Assembly: GCA_043809805.1 (NCBI GenBank)
Contig: JBDROR010000247.1
Coordinates: forward strand, 1 to 39,523
Direction of reading: 5' to 3'
From: a bacterium
GTDB taxonomy: Bacteria; JACRDZ01; JAQUKH01
DNA length: 39,523 bases
Shown here piece after piece: positions 4,392-39,508 of the stretch; position 1 is the stretch's first letter; each line of letters opens with the position of its first letter. The translations under genes were made by a program, and so were the position numbers. Below the pieces are notes generated by a model. The model did not search any database and was not told the origin of the DNA. It saw only the letters and a program-made list of their open reading frames with translations.

Positions 4392-5030
4392 ATGCTAACA
4401 AGTTGGCGAAAAAACGTCGTCCCCGCGAAGGCGGGGAACCAGAAAAATAATTTAAGAACACTGGATTCCCGCTTTCGCGGGAATGACGTATTGGGGTTAT
4501 GGATAATTTTGGCATTTTTGCTTTCTTTCTGCAGTATCGCCCAAAGGAATGATGGAAATAATCCGCATAATCTTGCGGCTAATTCAGAAAATTGTCTTTA
4601 TTGCCACAACAAAAGCAACATTCCTGCAGAAAGGGAAAGCTTGACAAGAGCCAGGCATACACATAAATTTAAATTAGAAATAGACTGCTGCAGTCAATGT
4701 CATATAATGGACGATACCAGAAGTAAAACCCCGAGGTTTAAAAAAAGTGTTACTGACTTATGCATTAAACCATGTCACAGCGGCGGGGCGTTAGGGGTAA
4801 GTCATCCCGTGGAGGTTGTTCCTGACTTTAAAGTGCCGGACTTTCTACCCCTGGAAAATGGGGAAGTTACCTGCGGGACATGCCATAATCCGCATAGCAG
4901 CCCGATAATAAAAACTAAGTCTTTAATAGGATGGAAAGGGGGAAAATCTTATTTCCTCAGAGTGGATAATTCACATGGAGAGCTATGCAGGACGTGCCAT
5001 GAGGCAAGTAATTGGCACAAAGAAAAATGA
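4392..5030 (+). CDS. Small multihaem c-type cytochrome (4 CXXCH); true start probably downstream, e.g. TTG 4491
   Basis: Motifs CLYCH, CSQCH, CGTCH, CRTCH, plus CIKPCH. The first ~33 codons (VVPAKAGNQ...DSRFRGND) are translation of a hairpin repeat. A signal-like LGLWIILAFLLSFCSIA follows. Confidence 0.75.
   Translation: MLTSWRKNVVPAKAGNQKNNLRTLDSRFRGNDVLGLWIILAFLLSFCSIAQRNDGNNPHNLAANSENCLYCHNKSNIPAERESLTRARHTHKFKLEIDCCSQCHIMDDTRSKTPRFKKSVTDLCIKPCHSGGALGVSHPVEVVPDFKVPDFLPLENGEVTCGTCHNPHSSPIIKTKSLIGWKGGKSYFLRVDNSHGELCRTCHEASNWHKEK
4425..4488. repeat. Hairpin repeat pair (family C, gtcattcccgc..gcgggaatc type)
   Basis: ccccgcgaaggcgggg, and ctggattcccgctttcgcgggaatgacg. The latter is nearly identical to 36300-36327. 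Confidence 0.8.
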
Positions 5031-12055: not shown

Positions 12056-12162
12056 TGTCATTCCGAGCAGAGCGGTTTGTCATTCCGAACGAAGTGAGGA
12101 ATCTGTCTGTGAAGAAAGATTTCTCCCTTCGGTCGAAATGACAATTGTATGTTCGAAATGCC
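12056..12162. repeat. Cluster of family A repeats (tgtcattccgaacgaagtgaggaatc / ttctcccttcggtcgaaatgaca)
   Basis: The same units recur at 19391-19510, 24845-24917, 26964-27245, 31719-31840 and 33177-33205. Confidence 0.85.
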
Positions 12163-18373: not shown

Positions 18374-18443
18374 TAGTTTTCAGTTGTTAGTTTTCAGTTG
18401 TTAGATAAAAATCTGAAAACTGACGACTGAAAACTGACAACTA
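18374..18443. repeat. Heptamer-based palindromic element
   Basis: tag ttttcag ttgttag ttttcag ttgttag ataaaaat ctgaaaa ctgacga ctgaaaa ctgacaa cta. It fills the whole 72-nt gap between the NHL gene and the 34-haem gene. Confidence 0.85.
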
Positions 18444-19367
18444 CTGTAAACTGAAGACCTCAATAAGGTTGGCAATCATTTCAACCACATAGAGACGATT
18501 AGCATCGTCGACTAAAATTCCGACCGGCGTAATAAAATTCCTGCGATTATCATACTCGTTGTTGATTAAAGAGAGGAGTTCCCCATCCCTATTGAACACT
18601 TGAATCACACCAAGAAAGCTATCGCTTACAAATATTCTGTCCTGTTTATCTATAGTAATACCTTTTGGGCGGTAAAAAGTTCCTTTTTTTATACCCCAAA
18701 AACCTATTTGTCGCAAATAATTCCCGTCCTGATCAAAAACCTGCACACGAGCATTAATAACATCAACTACATAAATTTCACCGTTACTATCGCTTGATAA
18801 CATAAACGGGAACCTGAATTCCCCTTTTCTTCTGCCATTGGCGCCCCACTCTCTTACAAATTCCCCTTTTTTGTCATACACTAAAACCCTGTGGTTATCG
18901 TTGTCTACAATAAAACACTTGTCTTGGACAATAATAATATCCGTAGGATCAGCCGGCACTGTTCCTTCACCTGATTTGAGCGAAAATTGGTATTGGGAAT
19001 TTCCATCAGAATCGAATACCGCAATTCTATGATTTCCAGAATCAGCTACGTAAACTTTCCCATCGGTATCTACGGCAATTCCAAGAGGAGACATCAATTC
19101 TCCGGATTGACTGCCTTTTACACCAAATTCTTTAATGAATTCACCCTTTTGATTAGTGACTACAACTCTGTGATTTACCCCGTCGAGTATATATAGGCTT
19201 CCGCCTGGGCCGACAGCTATGTCGCTTGGTTGGTTTAAAGGTGCAGAGTCAGGGCCTTTAATTTCAGAAAGAAAACGGACTTTTATGGAAGTTTCTTCTC
19301 CAAGTACATAAACACTCTTCGTGAGAAGAAGTATAAAAAAAAGGAGGGCAAATTTTTTTTTAAACAT
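18441..19367 (-). CDS. Secreted NHL-repeat beta-propeller protein
   Basis: 308 aa with a signal peptide. There are about six repeats of the type P.GIAVD..G.iYVaD..NhRv.VFd..G. Confidence 0.85.
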   Translation of the reverse strand: MFKKKFALLFFILLLTKSVYVLGEETSIKVRFLSEIKGPDSAPLNQPSDIAVGPGGSLYILDGVNHRVVVTNQKGEFIKEFGVKGSQSGELMSPLGIAVDTDGKVYVADSGNHRIAVFDSDGNSQYQFSLKSGEGTVPADPTDIIIVQDKCFIVDNDNHRVLVYDKKGEFVREWGANGRRKGEFRFPFMLSSDSNGEIYVVDVINARVQVFDQDGNYLRQIGFWGIKKGTFYRPKGITIDKQDRIFVSDSFLGVIQVFNRDGELLSLINNEYDNRRNFITPVGILVDDANRLYVVEMIANLIEVFSLQ

Positions 19368-19390
19368 GTTTTCCGCACAACTTATTATAT

Positions 19391-19623
19391 TGTCATTTCG
19401 ACCACACCACTTGTGTCATTTCGACCGACTATTTTTGTCATTTCGACCGAAGGGAGAAATCTTTCTTCTCGCAGAAGACAGATTCCTCGCTCCCGCTCGG
19501 AATGACAACACTTCACTCAGAATAACAACATTCGGGGCGACCGCAAAGGCCGCCCCTACAAATTTCCCCACAACCCACAACACATCCACACAACAATAGG
19601 GCGATTCATGAATCGCCCCTACA
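19391..19623. repeat. Composite repeat block (family A units, then two family B hairpins)
   Basis: tgtcatttcgacc occurs three times, followed by gaagggagaaatct and agattcctcgctcccgctcggaatgaca. Then come ggggcgaccgcaaaggccgcccctaca and tagggcgattcatgaatcgcccctaca. Confidence 0.85.
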
Positions 19624-22989: not shown

Positions 22990-23010
22990 GTATATCCCCC
23001 CCTTCCGTAG

Positions 23011-23080
23011 TAGTTGTTAGTTTTCAGTTGTTAGTTGTCAGATAAAAATCTAAAAACTGAAAACTAACAACTGAAAACTA
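23011..23080. repeat. Second copy of the heptamer-based palindromic element
   Basis: tag ttgttag ttttcag ttgttag ttgtcag ataaaaat ctaaaaa ctgaaaa ctaacaa ctgaaaa cta. It uses the same heptamers and the same ATAAAAAT centre as 18374-18443. Confidence 0.85.
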
Positions 23081-23082
23081 AT

Positions 23083-24723
23083 TTACTTCAATCCCCTCCC
23101 CGTATGGCACACCTGACATAACAATCCGTCTTTTTTAACTAAACGCAGTTTGTCCGGCTCATCCGCGCCTTTCGCTCCTGCTCCCCACGGGATGATTCCC
23201 TTTTCGTGGGGATTATGACATGTTACACATGTTACATTTTCTTCCCCATCCATTGGAAAAAATACATTCTGTTCAATTTCATAAACACTTTTTCTCTTTT
23301 GCATATCGGCAGATACCCGTTTCATATGATCTTTTTGCCCTGGATGGAATTTATCCCTGTGGCAGCGCACACATAAATCTGCCATAGGAGCGACAAAATT
23401 ACTGGAATCCTGCTTTTGCATCTTAACTTTTCTATCAGGCTGGACGCGATGACAATATAAACAAACGCCTTCCCGCACAATTCCTCTGGAATCTATCTGA
23501 TCATGAACATTATATTTTATATACGCGTCGCGTTCATGGCAATCGAAACATATATCGCTACGGTATTGATATGGCCCGCCGCGAAGGAATATCTTATTAT
23601 TTTTTTTAACTTCTTTTTTATTTTCTATCTGACAGTCCGCGAGATGGCAAGTGAGGCAAGTAATTTTTCCGTCAAAAAGCCTAAGTTTTTTTGGGTTATG
23701 CCTGCCCGGGATATCCACTGAAACATTAACCGGATGGAAATCCGCGGTTCTCCAGGGGAACTCATCTTTATGGCAACGCATACAAGCATCCACCACATTA
23801 CCACCAAATCTAATATTCGAAACGCCCTTTACAGGCTCTTCCGTATGACAAGTTACGCAAAAAGCATTTTTAAAATGAGGGTTTATTTTTTTAGATTCAT
23901 TTGCTAATTCTTCATATCCTGAATTAACAAAATGTCCTTTTTGGGAATAACCGTGGACATCATGGCAAGTCACACATTCCGGATCTTCTTTCAAATCCGA
24001 ATAGGGGTTCACATCTTTATAGTGTTCAGGACTTAATTCATTGTGGCAAAAATGACATATATTTTCTGTTTTCTGCCGTAGGGGCGATTCGGTGAATCGC
24101 CCTGTTGGGCGACCCAGCGGGTCGCCCCTACTTCCGACATGACAAAATTCACACGGAGACATATCTCCCTTATGAGGGATGCGCGACGCAACCCTGTCTC
24201 CATGGCAACTTTTGCAAAATGATTCGCGATTTTGGAAAACAGGCTCGAAATCAAACGCGCTTTTTGGAAAACCCCTGAGCAGATAAAAGTTACCTATACC
24301 GGCATGAAGGTCATGGCAGGTGGAACAGATGATAGCGCCCGTTCCACTTCCGTATTTCCCTATGGGGAAGATGTCTGGAATAGACATAGGTTTTTCTATT
24401 TTTCTGGCATCCACCCCTGTCGGATGGAGGCTCGTTTTTTTATGACAGCTTTCGCATAAGCTTATTTCATCAAACCAGAATGTACCCGCCCACGTCCGAA
24501 GCTCTTCTTCCGTCGAACCTGGTATAGGCCTTTGTTTGTGACAACTCTCACAACTTACCCCAAGATGCGGTTCAGACACTTCTTCAAATAAAGGCTTCGG
24601 TTGCGCCTCTGGTTCTTCTATAACAATTTTTTCATCGTATTCTCCCTCAGCCGCACAGAACGACAAAAGAGAGAAAAAATATAAAACAAAAATAACGAAA
24701 GAGATCAGACGCGAATTTTTCAT
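23083..24723 (-). CDS. Multihaem c-type cytochrome, 15 CXXCH motifs
   Basis: 546 aa with signal peptide MKNSRLISFVIFVLYFFSLLSFCAA. I counted 15 CXXCH motifs. Confidence 0.85.
   Translation of the reverse strand: MKNSRLISFVIFVLYFFSLLSFCAAEGEYDEKIVIEEPEAQPKPLFEEVSEPHLGVSCESCHKQRPIPGSTEEELRTWAGTFWFDEISLCESCHKKTSLHPTGVDARKIEKPMSIPDIFPIGKYGSGTGAIICSTCHDLHAGIGNFYLLRGFPKSAFDFEPVFQNRESFCKSCHGDRVASRIPHKGDMSPCEFCHVGSRGDPLGRPTGRFTESPLRQKTENICHFCHNELSPEHYKDVNPYSDLKEDPECVTCHDVHGYSQKGHFVNSGYEELANESKKINPHFKNAFCVTCHTEEPVKGVSNIRFGGNVVDACMRCHKDEFPWRTADFHPVNVSVDIPGRHNPKKLRLFDGKITCLTCHLADCQIENKKEVKKNNKIFLRGGPYQYRSDICFDCHERDAYIKYNVHDQIDSRGIVREGVCLYCHRVQPDRKVKMQKQDSSNFVAPMADLCVRCHRDKFHPGQKDHMKRVSADMQKRKSVYEIEQNVFFPMDGEENVTCVTCHNPHEKGIIPWGAGAKGADEPDKLRLVKKDGLLCQVCHTGRGLK
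24078..24131. repeat. 54-nt double-hairpin family B repeat inside the 15-haem cytochrome CDS
   Basis: gtaggggcgattcggtgaatcgccctgttgggcgacccagcgggtcgcccctac. It spans 18 codons in frame and encodes roughly GSRGDPLGRPTGRFTESPL between two haem motifs. Confidence 0.8.
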
Positions 24724-24844: not shown

Positions 24845-24917
24845 TGTCATCCCGGGCGGTTCCTTATTATTTCAGCATTTTCCAATCCTTGTCATTCCGA
24901 ACGAAGTGAGGAATCTT
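24845..24917. repeat. Family A repeats in the divergent promoter region
   Basis: tgtcatcccgggcggttcc and tgtcattccgaacgaagtgaggaatcttatacta. The second unit recurs at 27188-27220 with the same tail. Confidence 0.8.
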
Positions 24918-25022
24918 ATACTAGTGAGACTATCGTTACATGTTTTACAGTATTTTGTTATGGGGCAAATTCTTTAAATTTAAGATTGCTTTTTCTCTGC
25001 AATTTGATATTCTCATTATGTT

Positions 25023-26903
25023 ATGTATATTTATCCTAAAAATTACGATTGTGTCATTGTAGGCGCCGGCCACGCGGGATGCGAAGCCGCGCTTGCGTGT
25101 GCACGCATGGGGATGGAAACACTCCTTTTGACGACTAATATTGATAGTATCGCGTTGATGCCCTGTAATCCTGCTATTGGCGGATTGGCTAAAGGACATT
25201 TGGTAAAAGAGATAGATGCTTTGGGTGGTGAAATGGCAAAGGTTACTGATAAGACAGGAATTCAATTCAAGATTTTGAATAAAAGCAGGGGGCCGGCCGT
25301 TCAATCTCCCCGCGCGCAGTCTGATAAATTGGAATACAGACTGGAAATGACAAAGATTTTAGAAAATCAGGAAGGATTAGATATAAAACAAGGGTTGGTG
25401 GAAGAAATATTGGTTCACAGGAGTGTCCACGGAAGTGTTCACGGCAATAAAGTAAAAGGCGTAAGGACTGATATGGATATTATGTATCGGTCAAAGGCAC
25501 TAATTATCTGTACAGGAACGTTTTTAAATGGATTAGTTCACGTTGGGTTAACATCTTTTCCAGCCGGTAGAATGATTGAGTTTCCATCAAACGGTTTGGC
25601 AAAAAGTTTAAATAAACTAGGCTTTCGCTTGGGAAGATTAAAAACCGGGACTAATCCAAGGCTTGATAGCAGGAGTATTGATTTTTCAAAGACAACCTCT
25701 CAATATGGTGATATCCCCCCTACCCCATTTTCTTATTGGACAAAGTCAATATCTCGGGAACAATTACCCTGTTTTTTAACATATACCAACAAAAAAACAC
25801 ATAAAATTATTTTGAATAATCTCAAAAGATCCCCTCTTTACTCGGGGAGAATAAAAGGCATAGGGCCACGGTATTGTCCATCCATAGAGGATAAGGTCGT
25901 TAGGTTTCCGGATAAAGAGAGGCACCAGATATTTCTTGAACCGGAAGGCAGGGAAACAACAGAAATTTACGCGAATGGTATTTCAACAAGCCTCCCTTCT
26001 GATATTCAGCTCAGATTTCTACGCACAATAGAAGGATTGGAAAACGCTGAAATAATAAGGCCTGGCTACGCTATAGAATATGATTTTGTTTATCCTGATC
26101 AAATAAAATTAAATTTAGAAACAAAATTAATTGAAGGTCTTTTCTTAGCGGGCCAGATAAATGGGACATCAGGATACGAAGAAGCGGCAGCTCAAGGACT
26201 AATGGCAGGCATAAATGCGGTTTTAAAGATAAAAAAGGAAAACCCTTTCATTTTAAACAGATCAGAGGCATATATTGGGGTTTTAATAGATGATTTGGTT
26301 ACGAAAGAGATATTCGAACCATATAGGATGTTTACTTCAAGGGCAGAATATAGACTAATATTGAGAATAGACAACACTGACCAAAGATTAATGGGTTATG
26401 GGAACAAATTAGGATTGATTTCTAATGCAAATTACAAAAATTTTAACAAAAAAATGGAAAAAATAGAAAAACTCAAAGGAATACTATGCAAAATTGACAA
26501 GAAACAATATAATATTCCAAAGAAACCGGAAAATGTTACATTGACGCAATATTTAAAAAGACCGGAAGCGCGTTTGATGGATATTGTAGGGGCAATTCAT
26601 GAATTGCCCTTACACAAATTTGACTCCGACGTTATAAATCAAGTCGAAATTCAAATAAAATATGAAGGATACATAAACAGACAGGCATTACAGGTTAAAA
26701 AATTTAAAAACTTAGAAAGTAAATTAATCCCGGACAATTTTGATTATAGCAAAATAACTAGTTTTTCCTGTGAAGCAAAAGAACTATTGTTAAAAATAAA
26801 GCCAAGGTCAATAGGCCAAGCATCAAGAATAACTGGTGTTACCCCTGCGGATGTGGATGTTTTAATGATTTATTTAAAGAAAATACAAAAATGTTCCACG
26901 TGA
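25023..26903 (+). CDS. mnmG: tRNA uridine 5-carboxymethylaminomethyl modification enzyme MnmG (GidA)
   Basis: 626 aa with the FAD motif YDCVIVGAGHAGCEAALACARMG. Also GPRYCPSIEDK and the C-terminal GQASRITGVTPADV. Confidence 0.95.
   Translation: MYIYPKNYDCVIVGAGHAGCEAALACARMGMETLLLTTNIDSIALMPCNPAIGGLAKGHLVKEIDALGGEMAKVTDKTGIQFKILNKSRGPAVQSPRAQSDKLEYRLEMTKILENQEGLDIKQGLVEEILVHRSVHGSVHGNKVKGVRTDMDIMYRSKALIICTGTFLNGLVHVGLTSFPAGRMIEFPSNGLAKSLNKLGFRLGRLKTGTNPRLDSRSIDFSKTTSQYGDIPPTPFSYWTKSISREQLPCFLTYTNKKTHKIILNNLKRSPLYSGRIKGIGPRYCPSIEDKVVRFPDKERHQIFLEPEGRETTEIYANGISTSLPSDIQLRFLRTIEGLENAEIIRPGYAIEYDFVYPDQIKLNLETKLIEGLFLAGQINGTSGYEEAAAQGLMAGINAVLKIKKENPFILNRSEAYIGVLIDDLVTKEIFEPYRMFTSRAEYRLILRIDNTDQRLMGYGNKLGLISNANYKNFNKKMEKIEKLKGILCKIDKKQYNIPKKPENVTLTQYLKRPEARLMDIVGAIHELPLHKFDSDVINQVEIQIKYEGYINRQALQVKKFKNLESKLIPDNFDYSKITSFSCEAKELLLKIKPRSIGQASRITGVTPADVDVLMIYLKKIQKCST
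26586..26613. repeat. Family B hairpin inside the mnmG CDS
   Basis: gtaggggcaattc-at-gaattgcccttac, encoding VGAIHELPLH in the MnmG C-terminal linker. Confidence 0.75.
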
Positions 26904-26963: not shown

Positions 26964-27245
26964 TGTCATTCCGAACGGTGTAGGGGCGGCTCCCTGTGGC
27001 CGCCCATTTGTAGGAGCGACCCGTTGGGTCACCCAAAATAGGACGATTCACCGAATCACCCCGACATAAAAGGGCAGGCACGGGGACCTGCCCCTACGGA
27101 AGAAAAATTTCTCCCTTTGGTCGAAATGACAGTTGTGCGGTCAAGTTATCATTTCTAACGGACTTTGTCACTTTGAACGGTTTTTTTGTCATTCCGAACG
27201 AAGTGAGGAATCTTATACTAACAAATTGTGTGGTCGAAAGGACAA
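26964..27245. repeat. Large composite block of family A and family B repeats
   Basis: The block runs: tgtcattccgaacgg; then gtaggggcggctccctgtggccgccc, gtaggagcgacccgttgggtcaccc, ggacgattcaccgaatcacc and gggcaggcacggggacctgcccctac; then ttctccctttggtcgaaatgaca; then tgtcattccgaacgaagtgaggaatc. Confidence 0.85.
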
Positions 27246-27560
27246 TATAATAAGTCTCAGTGCAGAAAAAACAAAGTTCGTATTTGCTCGTATTGTATAG
27301 ATTTTACGAAATGCCTGTCGAGTGAATTTCTTTATTTTTATTGACTTAGATAAAATACTGGTTTAAAATTATTACGATAAATTCAAATTGGCAAATTCTA
27401 AATCCAGATGATTATAAAAAAACTCTTAAATGCTCTATTGGGTATCGTATCAAAATTAATAAACATAAGAAGGAATAATACTCTTTAACAAATCAACAGT
27501 GGCTTTTCTAGTCCTAATTTCAGGCGTTCGCACTCGCCGTTAAAAATAAAAAGAAAGATA

Positions 27561-30948: not shown

Positions 30949-31767
30949 ATGGCCAATGAAATAGAAAAAAAAGATTTAGCCGTATTATTAAAGGAATCAT
31001 GGGAGTTTTTTACTAAAAGGTGGGCTATCCTTTTTCAGGTAACTCTTTTTGTATGGATTCCTATTTTAATGATAGCTCCATTAGCGGGATTTTTGTGGAC
31101 GAGTTATAATAATTTATTAAAAAATAACCCGGAATTATTATTTTCATTTAAAGTTATCCTTTCCGGCGGAGTTTTAGTTTTTACCATAGTTGGCATACTT
31201 GTTGCCGTTTTGTTAATAGATCGACTAATAAAGGTAACAATAATGGATAGCTTATGGGAAAAGCCGGAAGAAAAATATTGTCTGAATATCTTTAAATTAT
31301 TAAAAGAAGTATGGCCCAAAATGGGAGGATTGTATAAAACACAGATTTTGGCATGGTTTATTATCTTTTTATGGTCTTTGCTGTTCTTTGTGCCTGGGGT
31401 GTTTTTCTTTATTTTGTTTTCTTTTGTTCCATATGAAGTAATTCTGAAGGGAAAAATGGGAAATGACGCTTTAGTGTCGAGTAAAAAAATTGTGAGATGT
31501 AATTTGGGGAAATTTGTGGGTAACATGCTGGTTATGGTTGGGATTTTAGTTTTTATTAATATCGGATTAAGCGGTTTTTTTAAATTGATATTTTCTTCTT
31601 TCCACTCGATGACTCTTTTGAATTTAGGGGAGTTAGCAGCAACAATTATTTCCAATATTTTAGGCCTATGGGGAACGATTTTCCATTTTAGCTTGTATAA
31701 GGAACTGGAAAGAAGGTCTGTTATTCCGAGCGGAGTAGGGGCGACCCTATGTGGTCGCCCGATGTAG
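30949..31767 (+). CDS. Polytopic membrane protein of unknown function
   Basis: 272 aa with about six hydrophobic helices. The last ~15 codons (SVIPSGVGATLCGRPM) are translated from repeats, so the true C-terminus is uncertain. Confidence 0.55.
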   Translation: MANEIEKKDLAVLLKESWEFFTKRWAILFQVTLFVWIPILMIAPLAGFLWTSYNNLLKNNPELLFSFKVILSGGVLVFTIVGILVAVLLIDRLIKVTIMDSLWEKPEEKYCLNIFKLLKEVWPKMGGLYKTQILAWFIIFLWSLLFFVPGVFFFILFSFVPYEVILKGKMGNDALVSSKKIVRCNLGKFVGNMLVMVGILVFINIGLSGFFKLIFSSFHSMTLLNLGELAATIISNILGLWGTIFHFSLYKELERRSVIPSGVGATLCGRPM

Positions 31768-31840
31768 GGGCGCAATTTATTGCGCCCAGAAATCAGGGCG
31801 TGATAAATCGAAAGATTTCTCCCTTCGGTCGAAATGACAA
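31719..31840. repeat. Family A and B repeat block
   Basis: gttattccgagcgg, gtaggggcgaccctatgtggtcgccc, gtaggggcgcaatttattgcgccc and agatttctcccttcggtcgaaatgaca. Confidence 0.85.
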
Positions 31841-31850
31841 AATACGAACG

Positions 31851-36272: not shown

Positions 36273-36299
36273 TTATTTCCCCTTAACATACCCTCACAA

Positions 36300-36327
36300 C
36301 TGGATTCCCGCCTTCGCGGGAATGACG
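36300..36327. repeat. Family C hairpin
   Basis: ctggattcccgccttcgcgggaatgacg differs by one base from 4461-4488. Confidence 0.85.
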
Positions 36328-37730: not shown

Positions 37731-37754
37731 GTCATTCCCGCACAGGCGGGAATC
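37731..37754. repeat. Family C hairpin between the A and B subunit genes
   Basis: gtcattcccgcacaggcgggaatc reaches the stop codon of the A subunit gene. Confidence 0.8.
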
Positions 37755-39508
37755 TAGTTTTCTTTATCGCTCTTGTTACGGATAGAAAATAACTTCTCAA
37801 AAGCCTGATTTATCTCATTTTCCAAATTCCCAAAAGCCTCTAATTGTTCCTCAGGAATAAATTTTGATTTGGCAATTTCTTCCCGAATAGGCAGTTTGAA
37901 AATTTCTTTAGCGTGAATTTTTTTATCTAAACAAATCATGGACTTTTCATGAAATAAAAGTATGAGTTTCAGCATATTGTATTGTTTTTTTAATGAAGTA
38001 TAAGTATCCTGTTCATCAAAAGCATTCTGGTGAAGGAAATCCTCCCTGATTGATTTTGCGGTTTCCATTATAAGTTTATCATGATCGGACATGGCGTCAA
38101 CACCGACCAGCCGAACAATTTCTTCTAATTCCGCTTCTTCCTGAAGAATACGCATGGATTGATCCCGCAATCCGGAAATTTCCGGAGCAACGGGATATAA
38201 GGAATAACTCCTGAGCCAATTTATTGCAGGGAAATGCCTGCGATACGCGAGTTTATCCTCCAACCCCCAAAATACCTTTACGATACGAAGTGTAGCCTGA
38301 ACTACCGGATCAGAAAGATCTCCACCGGGAGGCGATACTGCCCCGATAATTGAAATGCTTCCTATGCGTTTGTCCTTGCTCGCAAGACATACAACCTGAC
38401 CTGCGCGTTCATAAAATCCAGCAATTCTGGATGCAAGATAGGCCGGATACCCTTCTTCACCCGGCATCTCTTCCAGCCGTCCGGAAATTTCACGCAATGC
38501 TTCGGCCCATCGGGATGTAGAGTCAGCCATGACTGCCACATTATAACCCATATCCCTGTAATACTCTGCTATAGTGACACCGGTGTATATTGACGCCTCG
38601 CGCGCCGCTACGGGCATATTTGATGTGTTTGCGACCAAAACAGTTCTTTTCATCAAAGGCTCGCCGCTTTTTGGATCCTTTAATTCCGGGAATTCCAGCA
38701 AAACATCCGTCATCTCGTTTCCACGCTCACCACATCCAATGTAGATAACGATATCCGCGTCCGCCCATTTCGCAAGCTGCTGCTGGACTACGGTTTTCCC
38801 GCTCCCGAAGGGGCCGGGGATACAGGCTGTCCCGCCTTTGGTCACAGGGAAAAATGTGTCAATTACCCTTTGGCCTGAAGACAACAATTCTTTTGGCGCC
38901 ATTTTTTTTGCGTAAGGGCGCATTTTTCTCATAGGCCATTTGTGAAGCATTGTTATTTCTTTTATACCTTCGGAGGTTTTTATTTTGGCTATCGGTTCAG
39001 TAATTGTGTAATCGCCTTTTCCCGCCATCCAAATTAATTCTCCTTCAATATCATTCGGGACTAAAATATAATGCTTGATAAGGACTGTTTCCTGAACAAC
39101 ACCTAGTTTATCGCCCGCAAAAACGGCTTCGTCGTTCTTTGCAAGAGGTTCAAATGTCCATTTTTTATCGCGGTTTAATGCCGGAACGGAAATCCCGCGT
39201 GTTATATAATTTCCGGCCTTTTCCTTGATTACATCAAGCGGCCTTTGAATCCCGTCAAATATTGATTCCAAAAGGCCCGGCCCTAATTCGATGGAAAGCG
39301 GAAATCCCGTATCTTCGACAGGTTCTCCTCGTCCTATGCCTATGGTTTCTTCATAAACCTGAATGGATACCTTGTCCTGTTTTAATTCTATAACTTCTCC
39401 AACCAACCCATATTTACTTACCTTGACCACATTATACATACTAACACCGGTCATATTATCAGCAACTACAAGCGGCCCCGCGACTTTTGTTATTTGACCT
39501 TTTATCAT
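37754..39508 (-). CDS. ntpA: V-type ATP synthase catalytic subunit A
   Basis: 584 aa with Walker A GPFGSGKTV, N-terminus MIKGQITKVAGPLVVA, and the non-homologous insert typical of A subunits. Confidence 0.9.
   Translation of the reverse strand: MIKGQITKVAGPLVVADNMTGVSMYNVVKVSKYGLVGEVIELKQDKVSIQVYEETIGIGRGEPVEDTGFPLSIELGPGLLESIFDGIQRPLDVIKEKAGNYITRGISVPALNRDKKWTFEPLAKNDEAVFAGDKLGVVQETVLIKHYILVPNDIEGELIWMAGKGDYTITEPIAKIKTSEGIKEITMLHKWPMRKMRPYAKKMAPKELLSSGQRVIDTFFPVTKGGTACIPGPFGSGKTVVQQQLAKWADADIVIYIGCGERGNEMTDVLLEFPELKDPKSGEPLMKRTVLVANTSNMPVAAREASIYTGVTIAEYYRDMGYNVAVMADSTSRWAEALREISGRLEEMPGEEGYPAYLASRIAGFYERAGQVVCLASKDKRIGSISIIGAVSPPGGDLSDPVVQATLRIVKVFWGLEDKLAYRRHFPAINWLRSYSLYPVAPEISGLRDQSMRILQEEAELEEIVRLVGVDAMSDHDKLIMETAKSIREDFLHQNAFDEQDTYTSLKKQYNMLKLILLFHEKSMICLDKKIHAKEIFKLPIREEIAKSKFIPEEQLEAFGNLENEINQAFEKLFSIRNKSDKEN

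Follow-up and report, generated by a model that had tools for sequence, protein, structure and literature searches.

Palindromes of the GTAG-tagged repetitive extragenic palindromic (REP) superfamily carry the tetranucleotide GTAG at one end of a GC-rich palindrome with a 6-9-bp stem and are present in high copy number, mostly in intergenic DNA (PMC3733652). Intragenic GTAG and CGTC REPs have also been described, more than half of which are dimers encoding 20-30 amino acids (Di Nocera, De Gregorio & Rocco 2013, BMC Genomics 14:522; PMC3733652). The intragenic GTAG-tagged REPs are most numerous in Opitutus terrae, with dozens of copies, and the recB genes of two Xanthomonas species contain different REPs at about the same site; RPE-4 and RPE-6, two of the Rickettsia palindromic elements (RPEs), were equated with CGTC REPs (PMC3733652). 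Here we analyze a 54-nt double hairpin that is read in frame within the gene of a 15-haem cytochrome on the bacterial contig JBDROR010000247.1 (assembly GCA_043809805.1). The window is this whole contig of 39,523 nt (C247 of genome G000), which belongs to a metagenome-assembled genome (MAG) of 2.06 Mb in 247 contigs, with 38% GC and 92% completeness.

The double hairpin is very probably a non-autonomous GTAG-tagged REP dimer, similar to bacterial interspersed mosaic elements (BIMEs) and to REP doublets forming hairpins (REPINs), that was copied or converted into the coding sequence of a periplasmic or extracellular cytochrome as a tolerated passenger. The anatomy of its family is that of the GTAG-tagged REPs and BIME/REPIN-like dimers in PMC3733652 and PMC2817692. 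Tag, palindrome, copy number, head-outward dimers and an in-frame minority within known genes are shared with the GTAG REPs of Di Nocera et al. The differences lie in the GGGC-N-GCCC core stem family with its many compensatory subtypes, in the unclassified and sparsely sampled lineage with an AT-rich 2-Mb genome, in the multihaem cytochrome as a host, and in native loop residues that are replaced, not simply added to. The intragenic density is at least as high, with at least 36 copies in 2.06 Mb compared with about 70 'terrae' occurrences in the supplementary table (PMC3733652). As in the REPIN/RAYT system and the BIMEs of E. coli (Nunvar 2010; Bertels & Rainey 2011), an inverted REP pair can fold into a long hairpin, and Y1 HUH REP-associated tyrosine transposases (RAYTs) are encoded in the genome, two of them flanked by GTAG REPs in the REPtron fashion. 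Classical REPINs, however, are defined as extragenic and are linked with one flanked RAYT. In the dimer studied here the units have different inner stems, so that two hairpins compete with the long one, and the RayT clade associated with the family has REPs inside its own open reading frame (ORF).

The original prediction had compared the element to RPEs, which are likewise selfish palindromes residing in frame in permissive regions of functional protein genes (Ogata et al. 2000, cited in PMC3733652). The tag is CGTC in those RPE types that were equated with REPs and GTAG in the element here; the GTCATTCC-type repeats of the same genome are closer to the CGTC class than the GTAG dimer is. RPE-1 is much longer than the 54-nt element. 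The element resembles RPEs in its behaviour but is not classed with them, and no kinship in sequence is expected. In-frame colonisation of the RPE type was borne out by a sibling dimer elsewhere in the genome and by 36-45 of 310 family elements lying in frame, but the comparison is an established link, because intragenic GTAG and CGTC REPs, dimers included, had already been documented (PMC3733652). The phenomenon is known in other bacteria; what is new is the lineage and the host protein, and the density is notably high.

The double hairpin and its host gene

The sequence and coordinates originally given for the double hairpin proved exact, and its location inside a gene with 15 CXXCH motifs was reproduced by our count. 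Two 21-nt units form the element, within the range of the short (20-40 bp) GC-rich palindromes of GTAG REPs, and a GTAG tetranucleotide opens it while its complement closes it (Table 1). The GC content is 63-70% within the element and 43% for the cytochrome gene. With 10-nt flanks, the mRNA strand of the element folds at -42.3 kcal/mol (z = -6.0 against shuffled sequences). For the bare 54 nt, RNA parameters favor a single long REPIN-like hairpin over two hairpins (-39.5 against -34.4), and under DNA parameters the two-hairpin form is the minimum (-21.7). No direct repeat flanks positions 24078-24131 and no terminal inverted repeats like those of insertion sequences were found, so the two short palindromes do not constitute a miniature inverted-repeat transposable element. 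No U-tract follows the hairpins. An Rfam search of the element returned no family at threshold; the best match, gyrA RNA (17.5 against 45 bits, E 0.19), was dropped as a chance match on a GC-rich hairpin.

The host cytochrome begins with a signal-peptide-like N-terminus and matches the MtrC/MtrF domain II/IV, Paired_CXXCH and cytochrome c3/c7 families of Pfam. Comparison with its nearest orthologue (L001) gave a nonsynonymous rate (dN) of 0.094 and a synonymous rate (dS) of 0.795, a ratio of about 0.12. With all 15 haem motifs present and purifying selection acting on it, the gene is no pseudogene. The element starts at the second base of codon S198, ends at the first base of codon R216 and supplies RGDPLGRPTGRFTESPL between haem motifs 5 (CEFCH, residues 191-195) and 6 (CHFCH, residues 223-227). 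The original prediction had the location and the open frame right, but its peptide string included G197, which lies outside the element. It had further placed the insert in a tolerated surface loop. An AlphaFold2 model from a 32-sequence alignment is mediocre (mean predicted local distance difference test score, pLDDT, 67.7; predicted template modelling score 0.46), and residues 198-212 appear in it as coil with pLDDT below 50. This predicted coil is consistent with a flexible loop and is no proof of surface exposure; together with a spacer that varies from 17 to 31 residues among homologues, it supports a surface loop only indirectly.

Table 1 Coordinates of the REP dimer, its host gene and related features in the window
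Feature	Position	Strand	Details
GTAG-tagged REP dimer, 54 nt, tags (heads) outward	24078-24131		Read in frame on the minus strand; cytochrome residues 198-216
GTAG tag of unit 1	24078-24081	+	Head, present before 214 of the 453 genome units
Hairpin 1, GATTC subtype	24082-24102		GGGCGATTC/ggt/GAATCGCCC; perfect 9-bp stem, 3-nt loop
Spacer TGTT between units 1 and 2, 4 nt	24103-24106		TATATT in the sibling dimer on C52
Hairpin 2, GACCC subtype (commonest in the genome)	24107-24127		GGGCGACCC/agc/GGGTCGCCC; perfect 9-bp stem, 3-nt loop
CTAC, the GTAG tag of unit 2 on the opposite strand	24128-24131	-	Tail, present after 229 of the 453 genome units
Host gene, secreted multihaem cytochrome	23083-24723	-	546 aa, 15 CXXCH; intact, under purifying selection
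Second in-frame member, single 28-nt unit in mnmG (25023-26903)	26586-26613	+	Encodes VGAIHELPL
Intergenic family members, two tail-tagged units	19535-19622		19535-19559 and 19599-19622; hairpin scan
Intergenic cluster	26980-27097		Intact units 26980-27005 and 27072-27097; two degenerate units in between
Intergenic pair of head-tagged units	31735-31787		31735-31760 and 31764-31787; hairpin scan

Palindromic elements of another kind, built from heptamers (TTTTCAG / TTGTTAG arrays) and unrelated to the REP family, flank cytochrome genes at 18374-18448 and 23009-23085; the end of one of these arrays is 2 nt away from the 15-haem gene's stop.

Replacement and same-site occupation in related genes

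Close relatives of the cytochrome are few: only four were found in a collection of 5.8 billion proteins and one among the GTDB representatives, and a look-up of the exact sequence of the window protein (P0001) returned no second contig. L001 and L003 share the divergent mnmG neighbour and are therefore true orthologues. The spacer between haems 5 and 6 measures 27 residues in the window protein, 17 in P0002, 31 in two homologues, and 21 in P0003, P0004, P0005 and several distant homologues; it falls within 19-22 residues in 27 of 31 homologues. Since the nearest REP-free orthologues have 21 residues where the window protein has 27, the event was no clean 18-codon insertion: 6 residues were gained on balance, and about 12 native ones (ASDPKISSNPKQT in P0003) were replaced. 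In L003 and L123, the syntenic next-closest orthologues, the loop consists of AT-rich native DNA with no palindrome, and the element was not found in 27 more distant homologues. Repeat-free orthologues do not carry the 18 residues, and the gene is intact, the two checks that the original prediction had named for itself.

The closest relatives present a different picture of the loop. L002 has one intact unit, GTAG-GGGCGGTTC-gc-GAATCGCCC-CTAC, at the position of unit 2; it encodes VGAVRESPL and is preceded by native-like AEDQN. L001 has a non-palindromic 24-nt stretch at the position of unit 1, identical to it at 18 of 24 bases. A tree computed with the loop masked groups P0001, P0002 and P0005 with 97/99 support, apart from P0003 and P0004, and REP-derived sequence is found in the same loop of both sister orthologues, P0002 and P0005. 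Either the loop has been occupied by REPs since the ancestor of this three-member clade, or else it is a recurrent target. Both stems of the window copy are perfect at a dS of about 0.8, at which a neutral ancestral palindrome would decay; the copy is therefore either a recent arrival or one homogenised through conversion. Two heptamers recur in the native orthologues, GCGACCC of unit 1 and CCCTTCG of the REP tail. A simple two-ended microhomology replacement was rejected because its boundaries misfit, the REP head being placed 9 nt upstream of the common heptamer; the sharing may be a coincidence or reflect selection for conserved D-P and L-R residues.

Other host genes revealed both modes. 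In MnmG, the unit in the window replaces native LEKIDPKSIN; in the MnmG of L001 the native residues are kept and a 27-nt unit of another subtype stands at the site of the window unit, P0173 and P0174 have none. For MnmG, too, only four close relatives were found in the protein collection. A net gain of 5 codons with about 5 native codons replaced was found in YchF, and a net gain of 7 codons in RsmE. The zinc-finger-like loop of ValRS holds different subtypes in different entry frames at the same site in G000 (C65:6476-9283) and in G002 (C78, locus L114). In G001 this loop has unrelated sequence and no unit, and loop lengths across the three genomes agree within one residue. Composite arrays, each made of a GTCATTCCGA-type unit, one or two GTAG REPs and a GATTTCTCCCTTCGGTCGAAATGAC-type unit, are translated in frame in GltB (C210:8622-13046), Fmt (C4:13574-14392) and MutS (C149:4906-7623); their 48-60 extra residues are missing in the same-genus genomes G001 and G002. 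A search of G001 and G002 for the ATP-synthase b/delta host ORF gave no match. Collectively, both clean insertion and replacement occur, and occupation of the same site in related genomes is common. An 8-residue direct duplication in the window MnmG, HRSVHGSV (~25420-25450, residues ~133-140), is a separate feature that contains no REP unit and is not found in any of 10 aligned orthologues.

These comparisons also bear on a variant that differs from recent copying in timing and mechanism, namely a single old colonisation in the ancestor of P0001, P0002 and P0005 that was kept uniform through ectopic gene conversion. It would account for the presence of REP-derived sequence in the same loop of all three clade members and neither outgroup, for the base-for-base alignment of the L001 stretch with unit 1, and for the different REP subtypes seen at one site of MnmG and ValRS in related genomes. 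The native-like AEDQN of L002 at the unit 1 position, however, does not fit with it. In three proteins the window genome is closer to G001 than to G002, but the ValRS unit of G002 is missing from G001, which favors recurrent insertion. We regard a single old colonisation as possible, though less likely than not.

The repeat family, its in-frame copies and candidate transposases

The motif GTAGGGGCG occurs 381 times in the genome, compared with 3.6 expected, and a hairpin scan found 453 GGGC..GCCC units. These make up 310 elements, of which 173 are singles, 132 are dimers and 5 are larger. The inner stems fall into subtypes related by compensatory changes (GACC, AGCC, GAGG, GCAA, GTGA, GATT and others), and the dimers combine specific subtypes with their tags facing outward. 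The dimer type of the cytochrome (GATTC with a ggt loop joined to GACCC) has a second copy, the sibling at C52:13966-14021 in non-coding DNA, whose unit 1 is identical, whose unit 2 differs by one loop base and whose spacer is TATATT. Within the window, the suspected relatedness to the intergenic hairpins near 19535, 26975 and 31735 was confirmed with slightly adjusted limits (Table 1). The double-tagged motif with other stems is also present in the two same-genus genomes and, outside the genus, in 6 of 28 genomes, three from the same phylum and the others more distant.

A second and more abundant repeat superfamily, with the look of CGTC-tagged REPs, is present in the genome: GTCATT[CT]CGA occurs 821 times and CGTCATTCCCGC 99 times. 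Its copies in the window lie at 4454-4488, 12077-12148, 19380-19470, 24889-24923, 27099-27255, 31807-31844, 36298-36327 and 37731-37764. Its peptides VIPSGSEES and CHSERSEES resemble the VIPAKAGI-type peptides listed for Rickettsia CGTC-1 (PMC3733652).

The GTAG family is high in copy number, mainly intergenic and often arranged as inverted dimers. ORFs of at least 150 codons, measured stop to stop, take up 78% of the genome but hold 12-15% of the elements, a strong depletion (binomial p ~1e-137). An element counted as intragenic if its ORF had 150 codons or more, with 40 or more upstream of the element and 25 or more downstream. By this criterion 45 of the 310 elements are intragenic, and 36 have a coding-type codon-usage signal on both sides, so that about 12% of the family is intragenic despite the depletion. 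Among the 36, the frame GTA-GGG-GCx (VGA..) is used by 25 and xGT-AGG-GGC (xRG..) by 10. The G-TAG frame contains no tagged unit, the single case in frame 2 being an untagged false family member. The CATG-loop subtype has a TGA also in the second frame and occurs only in the first. The intragenic share is higher for singles (31/173) than for dimers (5/137; Fisher p = 6e-5); it is 22/84 among 20-nt-hairpin singles and 12/25 in the RATTCATGAATY subtype. The original prediction had called for such a census with length modulo 3, which was carried out; unit length modulo 3 fails to explain survival, since only 3 of 59 singles with 22-nt hairpins (30 nt with tags) are intragenic, compared with 22 of 84 with 20-nt hairpins (28 nt with tags).

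Compared with orthologues, the net change in length was -2, 0, +5, +6, +7, +9 and about +48 to +60 codons. A strong Pfam match was obtained for 19 of 20 host ORFs tested, which are well-known conserved genes, with housekeeping genes among them. The hosts include Fmt, HsdR, RsmE, an aminotransferase, YchF, a heptosyltransferase, ValRS, a PyrK-like protein, an ATP synthase b/delta fusion, a subtilase, RecN/SMC, CdhD, a TolC-like protein, MutS, BatA and GltB. Like the RPEs, the cytochrome copy and the other intragenic copies reside in frame in functional protein genes.

Matches to PF01797 are found on seven contigs of the genome. Two of these contigs, C17 and C194, encode RAYTs of 172-174 aa above the cut-off of NCBIfam NF047646 (REP_Tyr_transpos). 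Each forms a REPtron (C17:6400-7010 and C194:1600-2210) with inverted GTAGCCGCAGGCTTTAGCCTGCG on each side; this belongs to a different GTAG family, whose initial 12 bases, GTAGCCGCAGGC, were counted 64 times over both strands of the genome. The C17 RAYT carries its own REP in frame inside the protein (GSRRLQPAF), and its C194 paralogue does not. A truncated RayT-like ORF at C240:1677-2102, which has no HUH segment, includes a GGGC-type unit. The proteins homologous to it are RayTs, and most of those with a named source come from Candidatus Omnitrophota MAGs. By tblastn, C113 encodes a full-length RayT (minus strand, ~233-865) with an intact HUH motif and an internal perfect palindrome after GTAG, and C196:3642-4007 a partial one whose contig edge falls within that same palindrome. 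In 12 of 13 aligned RayT homologues, the HUH motif is directly followed by VG[AV].., a translated GTAG REP. At L124:6001-6669, GTAG-GGGCGATTCATGAATCGCCC, about 100 AT-rich bases and GGGCGATTCATGAATCGCCC-CTAC all lie within the RayT ORF; L125:5001-5621 has the same layout with stems that differ by fully compensatory changes, and precisely the GATTC-CATG REP subtype occurs in another MAG, within a homologue of the C240/C113-type RayT. A description of this layout, with a GTAG REP inside RayT after the HUH motif, was not found in the REP literature examined. A cognate enzyme is plausibly present in the genome, its putative link to the GGGC family being circumstantial.

A RAYT/RayT-type Y1 HUH transposase that works in trans on hairpins of single-stranded DNA may be what generates the copies. 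Those that enter genes would survive only where the frame is kept, the TAG frame is avoided and the loop is permissive, and native residues around the copy may then be trimmed, bringing the loop close to its ancestral length. The cytochrome copy would represent a recent insertion or reinsertion, or homogenisation through gene conversion from other family copies, and at the protein level it would be a tolerated passenger and no functional module.

A more directed process can also be considered, in which a RayT uses the REPs inside its own gene to seed or maintain the family and is directed to YTA(C)-like sites or existing REP remnants in variable loops. The same loops of the cytochrome, MnmG and ValRS would be hit again or reconverted in related genomes, often with the loop length preserved, and the REP tail CTA often stands in for a native Leu codon; the REP hairpins after the HUH motif in the linked RayT clade, with their compensatory stem changes, would fit with this. 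Such directed overwriting is unlikely in our assessment; if true, REP colonisation of proteins in this lineage would be non-random.

Remaining alternatives and significance

An RNA-level role in the cytochrome mRNA would make the element an exapted REP, serving as a decay barrier, an RNase III/RNase E site or a translational pause that aids secretion or haem attachment. The very stable fold of the mRNA strand and the perfection of both stems despite the divergence from the nearest orthologue agree with it. If the 24-nt stretch of L001 is orthologous, all 6 of its differences break the palindrome on the L001 side only, and REP papers state that mRNA fate can be modulated by REPs. The structure is, however, not conserved in the orthologues, being decayed in L001, halved in L002 and missing in L003 and L123, and the same family occupies variable loops or linkers of unrelated genes. 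The failure to find a U-tract after the hairpin, or an Rfam family at threshold, also argues against this role, which we consider very improbable. A repeat-induced chimera in the assembly can hardly be credited: the MAG is fragmented into 247 contigs and family repeats end some of them (C240, C196), but the orthologous reading frame continues exactly on both flanks of an in-frame, stop-free insert, and independent assemblies (L001 and L002; G002 for ValRS) have the same phenomenon at homologous loops.

Several observations weigh against a REP dimer copied or converted into the gene. The copying is read from sequence; the 54-nt copy is known from one MAG assembly, and the protein bearing the insert is predicted from the gene. 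The event was no simple insertion, native residues having been lost to it. At the unit 1 position, the closest orthologue shows a stretch that is 75% identical but not palindromic, and the history is therefore either ancient with conversion or one of recurrent insertion. No RAYT flanked by GGGC-type REPs was found in the 92%-complete assembly: the C17 and C194 REPtrons carry a different GTAG family, and the C240 copy with a GGGC-type unit has no HUH motif.

The tolerated REP dimer marks the haem 5-6 loop of the cytochrome as one that accommodates 17-31 residues. For annotation, recurring peptides of the VGAIHESPL and RGDPxGRP-like types should be read as products of the repeat, and not as conserved motifs or sequencing errors. 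The pairs of insertion and replacement, the different subtypes at the same site and the RayTs with internal REPs provide useful material for the question of how REPs are copied and where they land. With about 1 in 8 family members intragenic, the genome adds a deep-branching uncultivated lineage to the short list of those in which REP palindromes are translated within essential proteins.

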